From Escherichia coli (GTDB lineage: Bacteria > Pseudomonadota > Gammaproteobacteria > Enterobacterales > Enterobacteriaceae): a DNA stretch of 64,000 bases. The position numbers are program-made. Position 1 is the stretch's first letter, and each line of letters opens with the position of its first letter. The stretch lies in assembly GCF_003018115.1 (NCBI RefSeq), contig NZ_CP027458.1; one strand, 5' to 3'. This document shows positions 9,001 through 12,000 of the stretch, piece after piece.

Positions 9001-12000
9001 CCGGCAGGCCTGATTGACGTATGAGTGCTCTTTCTCTAGTATCCATCGCACACATAGGAACCTCCTCAAAGGATTCTATGGACAGTCGATGCAGGGAGGG
9101 ACAAGCTCCCTGCATCGGCGATTTTCAAGTTCAAATTTTAACGTGGCATTAACCACATAATTAATATACTCGTTATGTGGTTAATTGTCATCAAATAGAA
9201 CCAGATCAATATTCTGTTATTTGAATAAAATCAACTTTTAATTCTTTTTTATTCCTCATCATTTTTTGGGAAAAATCGTTCCATCTCAGATGACACCTTC
9301 TCCCTGATATCTTCAACCATATTGGCATATTCAAACTTTGGATTTCCGGAGACATGAGGACTGAGAGACTCAATACCCAAAATTTTCGCTACTGATGATT
9401 GTGTTTTTACAACGCATTCAAGAAGCAATTTATTAAACTCAGTCTGATTAAATGCAGACTCTTTACGCTCCATCTGAGCCTCATGTACACGAAGCCCCAG
9501 TTCAAGAAGCATTGAAGCTGTTGCTGAAAAACTGACATCTTTTTCCCTTGCCCCTTCCTGTCGACGCTTCTCAATAATCGCATTTATTTTTTCATAGGCA
9601 TCATTGCTGATATACAGGTTCACCTTAGCCATTAGAGATTACCTTTTTTGAACATAAAATAAAGTTAATTTCGAAACACTAAAATTCATAATGCAAACAG
9701 GGACGCACCGCTAGCACCGCCCCTGGCGGTATCCTATAAAAAAATACACCGCGCCGCTAGCAGCACCCCTAATATAAAATAATGTTTTTTATAAAAATAG
9801 TCAGTACCACCCCTACAAAGCGGTGTCGGCGCGTTGCTGTAGCGGCGTTAACAACGCCGCTTTAAATAAATCAGATTTAAACAATATAAATCCACAAATA
9901 TAACTCAATGATGTTAAACGCAAATCAGCAAAAACTTGTTTTTGCGTAGTGTGTGGTGCTTTTGGTGGTGAGAACCACCAACCTGTTGAGCCTTTTTGTG
10001 GAGTGGGTTAAATTATTTCCTGATGACGTCACCAGAGGTGAGAAAATGAGAAAATGGCTTCTGACGATCTGCCTGATGTTTATAAATGTGACCTGCAAGG
10101 CTGGTGATTGCTTTGATCTGGCTGGCAGAGATTATAAAATTGACCCTGACTTGCTGAGAGCAATATCATGGAAAGAATCCCGTAACCGGATTAATGCCAT
10201 CGGTATTAACCCGGTTACGGGATATGGCAGTGGACTTATGCAGGTAGACTCCCAGCATTTTAACGAACTGGCCCGCTACGGAATTAAACCGGAACATCTG
10301 ACAGCAGATCCCTGTCTGAACATTTATACCGGTGCTTATTATCTGGCTATAGCCTTTAAAAAATGGGGAGTCTCCTGGGAGGCTGTTGGTGCATACAACG
10401 CAGGATTCAGGAAAACCGAACGCCAGAACCAGCGGCGTCTTGCCTATGCATCAGATGTTTACCGGATTTACAGCGGGATAAAAAACAGCAAGGGGATCCA
10501 GCTTCGTGCATCTGAAAAACCGCTTTCAAAAATGAACAGCTCGCAGAAGAATTAATTTGATATACATTTAAAAAAACCGGTTATGCCGCAAACGCGGCAT
10601 GGAAGGCCACACACAAAAATATCATATGAGTGATAATGCTGACTGGCCGAAGCCCCGCAAAGCGGGAACCCATCTTATATATATCCGGTAACTGCGCAGC
10701 CTCCTGCCAGACCATTTTTCGCGGGCACAATATTTACAGACTACCGAAAAGCCAGTTGATGAAATTGAGGCATCTCAGACGACATATCAATGCCGCATAA
10801 TGATAATATAAGTAAATCCCCGAAAATTTTTCGGGGATTTACTTATATTATCATGACTTCCACTCCCTGAACTGTTCGGCAATCATCCATAATGCTTTGT
10901 TGATTCGGATATCACCATCAATACCCGTAATGCCTCTTGTCCTGGTATTTTTACCGGAGGCACTTCGCCCCGACAGTCCACCTTTTATCATATTCTCCTG
11001 AGCCCGCTGCCAGGTTGTCCAGAGATCGTTCTGTTTATCCTCCAAACGACGGGGAGTAATTATTTGTTCAGGCGTCACTGGTGTTTTATTTTCATCTTCA
11101 TACCTGACCATCAGTGCAGCTCTGCCAAATAAATGTTGCTCGTCACTGTTAAGATGTATTTCTTTCATCTCCTCCATATTTTCAGTGACCTTATCAAAGA
11201 CACCGAGCACTTCATACGCTCCCTCAATAACCTGCCCGACAATATCGCCTTTATGTGGAACGCGGATTTCGCCAAAATTATTTCCGCACACCAGACCATT
11301 TGTGCAGACAAAACGAAAAATTCCTGGGATCATCTGATAACTGGATGAACCATCATGTGAATTAAGCAGGATAATTTCAGGAACTTCCTGCCCGTTAATA
11401 TGCCCTTCCCTGCGAAGACGTAACATATGTTTACTGTATTCGCGGCGTCCCAAATCCCGAACCCGACTCTGACATGCAAAGAACGGCTGGAAACCTTCTT
11501 CACGTAACTTATTGATGATATTGATTGTTGGAATATATGTATAACGCTCACTCCGGGATTCATGTTTATCACCGGAAAATACCGAAGGCGCAAACTGCAT
11601 TAATTCATCATCCGTTAAAGGACGCTCACGGCGAATGGAATTATACCGACCAAAACGGGAAGCTAATCGCATAACAGCTACTCCTTTATGAAAGAATAAA
11701 TTTAATAAAAAATTTTTCCGCTTAATATCATCCCTCCCGGTCTCCATTAACAAGATCGCAACAATCAGGAGGGATATTCATCACATCCGGTCAGCAGATC
11801 GCCCGGATATCGAGGCCGGCACGCTTAATCTGACGCAGGAACTGTTTGAAGTGATCGGCTTCCGCAATGTTGATATGGCGGAACTGCGTATCCACACCCC
11901 GGCTTAGCGCGTAGCTATAGCTGAAGGCCATCTTTTCCGGGTGGCTTTTGCGATATTTTTTCAGCTCAGTCAGGCTGCTGAATTCCAGGACGTCCCACTC

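Follow-up and report, generated by a model that had tools for sequence, protein, structure and literature searches.

The best-described systems with which the region analyzed here can be compared are the transfer regions of the plasmids F (NC_002483), R100 (NR1), pHK17a (NC_016039) and pO26_2 (NC_013362), which together made up the allele comparison set (sliding identity and alignment). The F nick is made 3' of T141', in the strand with the sequence ...GTGT/GG... (the slash marks the cut), and T141', G142' and G144' are key bases (PMC2504302). TraI becomes joined to the 5' phosphate, and export of the strand proceeds 5' to 3'; in the F geometry, IHFa is found at +23 to +60 and is followed by the TraY sites (PMC12117103). 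In TraM, it is residues K3 and N5 that determine F-type sbmA binding (PMC3159463).

The window—a stretch of 64,000 nucleotides from an Escherichia coli plasmid—contains a region of this kind. The original prediction placed at positions 9047-9990 an oriT with an F-type nic motif and FinP-like hairpins, with gene X diverging from oriT. Every one of these elements lies where it had been placed, at a quality of match far beyond chance. Judged from the sequence, and with a probability of roughly 0.93, we read the region as the hub from which a conjugative plasmid of the classical F-like kind (MOBF12 group A, IncF), here of the STEC virulence type, regulates transfer and processes its DNA. The arrangement of oriT, traM and FinP is already known; the sole extra is that its recognition parts are mixed from the F, R100 and pHK17a types.

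Arrangement of the transfer region

The region runs from FinP through the traJ promoter and traM to an F-family oriT (9633 to about 10010; Table 1). As in F and R100, oriT sits between a divergent gene X on the leading side and traM on the tra side, and the wider gene order, traY-traJ-finP-traM-oriT-geneX-DUF932, is the same in the window, F and R100. Elements across 8000-10600 are all intact, matching full-length models. While the original prediction was right about the oriT and the FinP hairpins of the interval, it left out the whole traM gene and the traJ promoter. Homologous regions occur in about 3,900-4,600 PLSDB plasmids, the majority of which are typed conjugative; the whole 944 bp is matched at a level of at least 95% by only 27.

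Three genes of interest—traI, traD and finO—were not found within the 64-kb window. Statements about the cognate proteins TraI and FinO rest on two relatives, NZ_CP027581.1 and pS19_141-a, which are 99.9% identical to window positions 1-25000.

Table 1. Features of the transfer region, with positions in the window.
Feature	Position	Strand	Evidence and remarks
traJ, 215 aa	8408-9055	-	NCBIfam equivalog NF010276, 477.6 bits (cut-off 444), 1-215/215
Putative finP promoter (TTGACG, 17-nt spacer, TAGTAT)	9014-9042	+	consensus scan only, 9/12 matches
FinP antisense RNA	9049-9125	+	Rfam RF00107, 101 bits (cut-off 45), E 2.8e-20, full length 1-76
traJ mRNA 5' leader	9050-9158	-	Rfam RF00243, 127.2 bits (cut-off 50), E 1.4e-22, full length
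FinP SLI	9053-9080	+	loop CCUCAA, opposite traJ Shine-Dalgarno
FinP spacer GACA	9081-9084	+	between SLI and SLII
FinP SLII	9085-9119	+	14 bp, loop GGACAAG
FinP tail GAUUUU	9120-9125	+	3' end
Putative traJ promoter (ATGACA, 17-nt spacer, TATATT)	9163-9191	-	consensus scan, 10/12
traM, 127 aa, F-type	9249-9632	-	PF05261, 4.1e-55; NF010267, 231 bits
GC-rich predicted TraM-binding blocks, position of F sbmA and sbmB	9700-9770		overlap traM promoter region
AT-rich spacer, position of F IHF site B	about 9771-9809		83% A+T; 98-100% identical to F
Predicted TraM-binding block, position of F sbmC	9810-9865		92-98% identical to pHK17a, 72-90% to F
AT-rich segment, position of TraY sites (sbyA/C) and IHF site A	about 9866-9940		76% A+T; sites inferred
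TraI relaxase (trans-esterase) recognition site, TTTGCGTAGTGTGT/GGTGCTTT	9941-9962	+	homology; predicted nic 9954/9955
Inverted repeat, TTGGTGGT and ACCACCAA	9962-9981		directly 3' of nic; identical in F, R100, pHK17a
Gene X / ORF169 / ygfA, SLT lytic transglycosylase	10046-10555	+	PF01464, 6.5e-21; 169 aa

The predicted nic site and its relaxase

The 22-nt TraI site (TTTGCGTAGTGTGTGGTGCTTT) has a single match in the 64-kb window even when 3 mismatches are allowed (expected number, 0.00). Conservation of the nic core, GTGT/, had been claimed from the outset, and the alignment with F and R100 agrees base for base: from GTGT/GGTGC through GGTGAGAACCACC to about 10018, all three sequences are identical. 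The TraI key bases T141', G142' and G144' are present on the + strand as T9954, G9953 and G9951, and nic is predicted to lie between T9954 and G9955 of that strand. The adjoining inverted repeat falls inside the stretch on which the TraI helicase is loaded (-1 to -27; PMC12117103).

The label "F-type" holds for this nic site at the level of the family, but not by allele. The specificity bases, A9948 (147') and T9950 (145'), give the sequence AGTG, which makes the site R100-type; R100 and pHK17a read the same, unlike F and pO26_2, in which both positions are G (GGGG).

The nic allele co-varies with the block of TraI residues 186-207 in all of the plasmids compared (6/6). GGGG is paired with Q193/R201 in F and pO26_2, while AGTG is paired with R193/Q201 in R100, pHK17a, NZ_CP027581.1 and pS19_141-a. 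The TraI of pS19_141-a is intact at 1756 aa and has both Y16/Y17 and the His triad; in NZ_CP027581.1, the annotation gives traI a frameshift near aa 1542. Residues 193 and 201 were reportedly recognized as the determinants of F versus R100 specificity by Harley and Schildbach in 2003.

TraM, IHF and TraY segments of oriT

TraM of the window is identical to that of F at 125/127 residues, versus 115/127 for R100, and over 9350-9650 the DNA of traM is 100% identical to F. Its DNA-reading beta-ribbon carries K3 and N5; R100 TraM has R3 and I5. The sbm region is, overall, 89-100% identical to F. Within it, 9700-9770 is 94-100% identical to F and 68-74% to R100, and contains ACCGCT with near-copies: the F motif A(G/C)CG(C/G)T is found here six times with 0-1 mismatch. 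Across 9700-9862 there are two perfect and eight one-mismatch copies of the motif, against a perfect-motif background of 1.06 per kb. Two bases of the sbmA-equivalent block differ from F, one of which turns a perfect AGCGGT into GGCGGT. The block at the sbmC position has AGCGGT at 9819 plus one-mismatch copies, and two inverted repeats (9817-9826/9854-9863 and 9841-9849/9853-9861). GANTC, the motif of R1 and pED208, does not occur in the sbm region, and none of the loci compared contains the IHF-site sequence given for R1 in PMC12117103; the oriT is therefore not R1-type for TraM.

The segment 9866-9940, which is covered by 375 PLSDB records, is 90-96% identical to pHK17a and pO26_2, 60-62% to R100 and 42% to F. 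The strict IHF consensus WATCAR-N4-TTR has no match in the segments where IHF sites are expected; a single match with 1 mismatch is at the background rate. TraY, which matches PF05509 and NF010300, is 75 aa long and differs from its counterparts in pHK17a and pO26_2 at 4/75 and 3/75 residues, respectively. It is 61% identical to TraY of R100 and 47% to that of F.

FinP and the traJ leader

FinP is antisense to the traJ leader, and the Rfam matches to both RNAs score above the gathering cut-offs, in line with the FinP-like hairpins first described. The fold of FinP (MFE -38.3 kcal/mol, z -6.49) is more stable than that of any shuffled sequence (0/200 as stable), and the MFE structure reproduces SLI, the GACA spacer, SLII and the tail. 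A perfect 12-bp hairpin in the traJ leader had been equated with FinP stem-loop II, and rightly so: the 12-nt arms 9087-9098 and 9106-9117, 100% complementary around a 7-nt loop, are the SLII core, to which G-C and U-G closing pairs add to give 14 bp. The identical FinP 77-mer is found in 230 PLSDB plasmids. The putative finP promoter ends 7 nt upstream of where FinP begins, a position that fits the Rfam start of FinP.

The traJ leader folds (-42.3 kcal/mol, z -4.8) with two hairpins, SLIIc and SLIc. The traJ Shine-Dalgarno sequence GAGGAGG (complement of 9061-9067) and the start codon (9055-9053) both lie within FinP SLI. Here ATG 9055 is taken as the true start of traJ, and the start of the longest ORF (9115) is rejected. 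No Pfam model matched TraJ, while an NCBIfam model did. At 202/215 residues the protein is identical to TraJ of pHK17a and pO26_2; identity to TraJ of F and R100 is ~28%. The putative traJ promoter is located just upstream of the 5' end of the leader (9158), inside an R100-like patch (9150-9250) that is, by sliding identity, 92-94% identical to R100 and 60-78% to F and pHK17a. In the relatives, including pS19_141-a, finO is intact just beyond traX. Whether finO is missing from the plasmid was also considered; more probably, the gene lies beyond the window.

A mosaic of known alleles

Alignment with known oriT and finP alleles, which had been proposed as the way to assign a specificity group and here covered F, R100, pHK17a and pO26_2, returns a mosaic by allele and no single group. 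The nic site is R100-type; the F type is seen in traM and the sbm sites; the traJ promoter patch is R100-like; and finP, traJ, traY and the segment of predicted TraY and IHF sites are of the pHK17a/pO26_2 type. Each of these alleles is common in public plasmids. The F allele group as a whole, in which a GGGG nic is combined with F-type TraY, TraJ and FinP, is not present: only traM and sbm are F-type. We read the region as a recombinational mosaic of known alleles.

R100 is the closest match around nic, where 54 bp (9928-9981) are 100% identical, A147' and T145' included, and close relatives have a TraI whose block 186-207 is R100-type (R193/Q201). In its predicted TraM-binding sites, however, the window is just 42-74% identical to R100, and its FinP has other loops in both SLI (CCUCAA in the window, CCUCUCAA in R100) and SLII (GGACAAG versus GUCGCU). 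Gene order is shared with F, and so is the strand logic for gene X and the leading region; the window differs in nic (GGGG in F), in the sbyA/IHFa segment (only 42% identical), in TraY (75 aa versus 133 in the F annotation) and in the FinP loops, which in F are CCUCACAA and UUCACGU. The FinP 77-mer of pHK17a and pO26_2 is identical to that of the window, and pHK17a also has an R100-type nic together with F-type TraM, so that the combination seen in the window is not unique. Both plasmids nonetheless differ from the window in the traJ promoter and traM 3' flank (9150-9250; only 70-78% identical) and in traM itself (84-98%, whereas traM of the window is 100% F-identical), while pO26_2 differs further in having an F-type nic and F-type TraI.

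All of this falls within about 1 kb: a 400-bp block 100% identical to F traM, the R100-like traJ promoter patch, finP/traJ/sby of the pHK17a type, and the R100-type nic. The specificity groups—R100-type for TraI/nic, F-type for TraM/sbm, pHK17a-type for FinP/TraJ/TraY—predict which helper plasmids would be able to mobilize or repress the plasmid. Beyond annotation, the oriT/FinP result matters little.

Strand logic and the leading region

The + strand is expected to enter the recipient first, starting with gene X and continuing toward higher coordinates through the leading region, because the predicted cut lies on the + strand and TraI is attached at the 5' end. The original prediction had likewise named the plus strand as the transferred one, a view that is upheld by the nic key bases on the + strand and by the published polarity of F. 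Leading genes on the minus strand would therefore have the transferred + strand as their template, whereas gene X would not. Accordingly, the earlier description of the leading genes as entering template strand first suits the minus-strand genes but not gene X, whose coding strand would be transferred.

Gene X is a + strand ORF that reads away from oriT, just as the divergence first noted would have it, and its relatives are annotated as SLT-domain proteins. The likely start is ATG 10046, in favor of which the PGAP start (equivalent to 9965) is rejected. From its position, gene X would be the first gene into the recipient; ygfA of F has the same exceptional orientation in the leading region, and late expression (PMC9849209). 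On the - strand follow a DUF932 gene (10851-11672), hok/sok, psiA, psiB and a ParB-like gene. Three Frpo-like repeats are present, and the one that was tested (12570-12900) folds as a ~310-nt ssDNA hairpin, which fits the consistency with hairpin promoters that had been pointed out before. The transferred strand, the predicted nick and the direction of entry orient the reading of leading-region genes and ssDNA promoters elsewhere in the window. A long perfect palindrome explains the weak Rfam E-value matches at 10785-10941 (miRNA-like models, His_leader, RsmY and others), which we discount as artefacts.

Proposed mechanism and alternative readings

By homology to F and R100, DNA processing may proceed as follows: (i) F-type TraM tetramers (K3/N5) would bind the GC-rich sbm blocks (9700-9865), (ii) the AT-rich stretch 9866-9940 would be bent by IHF and the 75-aa TraY, (iii) an R100-type TraI would bind the melted + strand at 9941-9962, cut at T9954/G9955 and stay on the 5' end, and (iv) the + strand would be unwound and exported 5' to 3', starting with gene X and the leading region and ending with traM and the tra operon. 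In the recipient, the T-strand would serve as template for the leading genes of the minus strand, which the Frpo-like ssDNA hairpin promoters could drive; expression of gene X would require prior synthesis of the complementary strand. As for control, the SLI loop CCUCAA of FinP would pair with the traJ Shine-Dalgarno sequence, SLII would act as the terminator, and FinP together with FinO would block TraJ translation, leaving the tra operon repressed.

It is very improbable that nic has F specificity, with F TraI rather than an R100-type TraI as the cognate relaxase. In its favor, F shares the core GTGT/GGTGCTTTTGGTGGTGAGAACCACC, and both traM and the sbm sites belong to the F type, but bases 145' and 147'—those that separate F from R100 sites—are here T and A, as in R100. 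The pairing with TraI points the same way, since AGTG plasmids have the R193/Q201 block in 4/4 cases and GGGG plasmids have Q193/R201 in 2/2. In addition, a specificity switch to the R100 site takes a double mutant of F TraI (PMC7826260). The R100-type site at 9954/9955 must also be set against a degenerate second copy of the TraI site (9993-10008; TTTTTGTGGAGTGGGT), at which real or extra cleavage, like cleavage on the - strand, seems to us scarcely credible. This second copy is a direct repeat, 81% identical to 9939-9954, and is kept in F, R100 and pHK17a; it is, however, without the ...GTGT/GGTGC core, reading GTGGGT/TAAAT. We know of no such site that is reported to be nicked in F or R100. 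The mapped nic of F corresponds to 9954/9955, not to the second copy (PMC2504302).

A different kind of alternative accepts the R100-type nic and the rest of the hub, but takes oriT and FinP to be an intact-looking, silent relic on a plasmid incapable of self-transfer, offering at most an oriT that can be mobilized in trans. Large STEC virulence plasmids often have decayed tra regions; the window covers only about 9 kb of the tra operon and lacks traI, traD and finO, and the closest relative, NZ_CP027581.1, is the one with traI annotated as frameshifted. We nevertheless hold a relic to be unlikely: the elements in 8000-10600 are all intact, the sister plasmid pS19_141-a has full-length TraI and FinO, and the relatives, in which the traM to traX set is complete, are classed as conjugative. 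Moreover, this alternative concerns the current use of the elements and not their identity.

Returning to the reading of the region as an F-like hub with mixed recognition parts, the fine scale of the mosaic might—tentatively, and with more doubt than confidence on our part—make this oriT a natural "hybrid-lock" origin that needs both R100-type TraI and F-type TraM. Such an origin would escape mobilization or interference by co-resident plasmids of a pure F or pure R100 type, and would escape FinP cross-repression by F-type and R100-type plasmids as well. The co-variation of nic with TraI 186-207, set in the near-identical backbones of pHK17a and pO26_2, would in that case be the mark of selection under which a site and a gene about 30 kb apart were exchanged repeatedly and in concert. 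In itself, this co-variation confirms in a small way, from natural plasmids, the F/R100 specificity swap already published.

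An F-family oriT

Region 9047–9990 contains the oriT of an F-like plasmid, together with traM and FinP. This observation is confirmed and its interpretation is supported, with a sole correction: the nic site, called F-type in the original prediction, does belong to the F family but is R100-type in specificity. The analysis shows directly the sequence identities, the membership in covariance models and protein families, and the co-variation of alleles; the feature is textbook biology, of a known kind with known alleles. The gene order is exactly that of F and R100, and gene X diverges from oriT as had been claimed, lying on the strand opposite to traM and traJ.

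Features of the oriT region and its surroundings
Feature	Position	Strand	Evidence or remark
traB, traK, traE, traL, traA	low-coordinate side, in this order from low to high	-	ORF list
traY	8062–8289	-	PF05509; NF010300
traJ	8408–9055	-	NF010276 equivalog, 477.6 bits vs 444, aligned 1–215/215
FinP antisense RNA	9049–9125	+	Rfam, full length, 101 bits (gathering score 45)
traJ 5' UTR	9158–9050	-	Rfam, 127.2 bits (gathering score 50)
traM	9249–9632	-	PF05261; NF010267
GC-rich TraM blocks (putative)	9700–9770, 9810–9865		F-like oriT architecture
AT-rich spacers	9771–9809, 9866–9940		83% and 76% A+T, respectively
Inverted repeat TTGGTGGT/ACCACCAA	9962–9981		after TraI site; inverted-repeat scan
Gene X/ORF169	ATG 10046 to 10555	+	169 aa; SLT domain; beyond oriT
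DUF932, hok/sok, psiA, psiB, ParB-like gene	after gene X	-	

Two alternative start codons were rejected. The longest ORF for traJ begins at 9115, an over-extension of the true start. In relatives, PGAP places the start of the gene X CDS at the equivalent of 9965 (6919 in L001, a relative's locus), from which the protein would span the nic-proximal inverted repeat; this start was set aside in favour of the downstream ATG, which yields the classical ORF169. No match to the strict IHF consensus was found in the expected oriT segments, and so the IHF and TraY sites were assigned by position and homology only. TraM, TraY and IHF are predicted to bind at oriT.

The nic site and the transferred strand

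Direct reading of the plus strand around nic gives TTTGCGTAGTGTGT/GGTGCTTTTGGTGGTGAGAACCACC (the slash marks the cut). The 22-nt TraI recognition site (9941–9962) has a single match in the 64-kb window with ≤3 mismatches allowed (expectation 0.00). In F, the phosphate that is cut joins T141' to G140', and T141', G142' and G144', at positions one, two and four on the 5' side of nic, are the key recognition bases (PMC2504302). Their plus-strand equivalents are T9954, G9953 and G9951, which places the predicted nick at 9954/9955 on that strand. One TraI is linked to the 5' phosphate and another is loaded on the stretch 3' of nic; the transferred strand (T-strand) exits 5'→3' (PMC12117103). The 5' attachment and direction of exit point to the plus strand as the T-strand, with the direction of transfer taken from homology to F; gene X and the higher-coordinate leading region would enter the recipient first. 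The original claim of a conserved nic core on a transferred plus strand agrees with the F key bases on this strand and the uniqueness of the site. The 5' half of the TraI site (9939–9954, TTTTTGCGTAGTGTGT) recurs as a degenerate direct repeat at 9993–10008 (TTTTTGTGGAGTGGGT), 54 bp downstream of nic and just ahead of gene X; this copy is kept in F, R100 and pHK17a.

FinP and the traJ leader

The perfect 12-bp hairpin previously assigned to FinP stem-loop II is the inverted repeat 9087–9098/9106–9117 (7-nt loop). Its arms fall within the 14-bp stem-loop II of the Rfam FinP match, which upholds the assignment. The 77-nt RNA folds into stem-loop I (9053–9080), a GACA spacer, stem-loop II (9085–9119) and a GAUUUU tail, with a minimum free energy of -38.3 kcal/mol (z = -6.5; 0 of 200 shuffles fold as well), while folding of the traJ leader gives hairpins complementary to FinP (z = -4.8). 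Promoter-like sites for finP (9014–9042, plus strand) and traJ (9191–9163, minus strand), located by consensus scan alone, both stop a few bases short of the Rfam-defined RNA 5' ends. FinP would be expected to be expressed, and to repress, in this plasmid.

A mosaic of specificity groups

The allele alignment suggested in the original prediction was run with F (NC_002483) and R100 (NC_002134), and with pHK17a (NC_016039) and pO26_2 (NC_013362) as plasmids carrying the same FinP allele. It revealed a fine mosaic of specificity groups. The nic site (GCGTAGTGTGT/GG) is identical to that of R100 and pHK17a, and unlike that of F and pO26_2 (GCGTGGGGTGT/GG). The traM gene and sbm (TraM-binding) sites are F-type: TraM is identical to that of F at 125 of 127 residues (DNA 100% identical over 9350–9650) and carries the beta-ribbon residues K3/N5, which set F-versus-R100 sbmA specificity (Wong et al., PMC3159463); the F motif A(G/C)CG(C/G)T is present in the sbm region, from which GANTC was absent in a motif scan. 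The finP, traJ and traY genes and the sbyA/IHFa segment are of the pHK17a/pO26_2 type. FinP is identical in these plasmids, TraJ matches at 202 of 215 residues and TraY differs at 3–4 residues, whereas the TraJ proteins of F and R100 are merely ~28% identical to that of the window. The allele-specific FinP loops are CCUCAA and GGACAAG, compared with CCUCACAA and UUCACGU in F, and CCUCUCAA and GUCGCU in R100. A patch at 9150–9250 (traJ promoter and traM 3' flank) is 92–94% identical to R100 and 60–78% to the others. The breakpoints are sharp: this ~100-bp R100-like patch abuts a ~400-bp block (9250–9650) that is 100% identical to F traM.

No traI, traD or finO lies within the 64-kb window, and the cognate proteins were read from relatives (four plasmids in PLSDB share 99.9% identity with window 1–25000). 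In two of these, NZ_CP027581.1 and pS19_141-a, the TraI relaxase domain shows the R100 state, including R193/Q201, at all F/R100-discriminating positions in 186–207. The nic allele and this TraI block co-vary perfectly in six of six plasmids: GGGG (F type) occurs with Q193/R201 in F and pO26_2, and AGTG (R100 type) with R193/Q201 in R100, pHK17a and both relatives. This holds although pHK17a and pO26_2, which differ in nic and TraI, have the same finP/traJ/traY alleles. The specificity-switching F TraI double mutant of Harley & Schildbach 2003 reportedly concerns residues 193/201. In an F TraI double mutant, specificity was changed to the R100 site (PMC7826260). The co-variation implies that a site and a gene ~30 kb apart were swapped in concert. 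That the mosaic forms a functionally distinct, hybrid-specificity origin, kept by co-ordinated nic/TraI swaps, is a plausible idea of modest interest that we consider rather unlikely.

In pS19_141-a, TraI (1756 aa, Y16/Y17, His triad) and FinO are intact. For NZ_CP027581.1, no more distant from the window than pS19_141-a, the annotation gives a frameshifted traI (28650–33920 in its locus, L005) whose first in-frame stop falls near aa 1542; this is either an error of sequencing or a true loss of self-transfer in its lineage. The TraD C-terminal tail, which docks on TraM, is the same in F, R100 and the relative.

The leading region

With the plus strand as T-strand and the leading genes on the minus strand, the T-strand would be their template. 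The original prediction that leading genes arrive template strand first thus stands for these minus-strand genes. Gene X is an exception: for it, as for F ygfA, the T-strand is not the template, and ygfA is not expressed until the complementary strand has been made (PMC9849209). The proposed fit with hairpin promoters is borne out by three ~550-bp Frpo-like repeats in the leading region (12544–13147, 18177–18800 and 21467–22007; mean column identity 89%), the first directly upstream of a minus-strand ORF (12234–12536). Folding 12570–12900 of the T-strand as single-stranded DNA gives a hairpin of ~310 nt (-105.5 kcal/mol, z = -11). For F, two ssDNA promoters of this kind, Frpo1 and Frpo2, have been described.

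Between the first and second repeats, a sok antisense RNA (13596–13767, minus strand; RF01794, 92.6 bits, gathering score 59) adjoins a Hok-family ORF, an arrangement matching F flmAB (PMC9849209). A perfect 26-bp-stem palindrome (10800–10854, ATGATAATATAAGTAAATCCCCGAAAA/TTTTCGGGGATTTACTTATATTATCAT) overlaps the DUF932 stop codon between the convergent gene X and DUF932, and is probably a bidirectional terminator; weak Rfam matches there on both strands are spurious products of the palindrome.

Distribution and plasmid type

Homologous regions occur in ~4,600 PLSDB plasmids, of which most come from Escherichia, Klebsiella and Salmonella and most are typed as conjugative. The exact FinP allele is found in 230 plasmids and the sbyA/IHFa type is covered in 375 records; the full 944-bp combination, at ≥95%, is found in only 27. 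The nic 54-mer (9928–9981) is 100% identical in 1,262 plasmids and 95–99% in 2,572 more, among which the F type, with two mismatches (96.3%), would fall. The combination of specificities is not new, because pHK17a already has R100-type nic and TraI with F-type TraM and the window's FinP/TraJ; just the particular breakpoints are rare.

Among F-like plasmids of MOBF12, this one falls into group A, the classical group, whose traM, traJ and finO vary although they are conserved (PMC5102898). The cargo half of the window (39001–64000) shares ~95% identity with STEC plasmids of ~160 kb. It encodes enterohemolysin (ehxCABD), a YadA-like (Saa-type) adhesin and a lutABC cluster for L-lactate utilisation, which mark the plasmid as an STEC-type virulence plasmid. 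No single record in PLSDB covers the entire window; the plasmid is therefore a recombinant in its own right, joining a tra/leading backbone that is 99.9% identical to known plasmids with a more divergent virulence segment.
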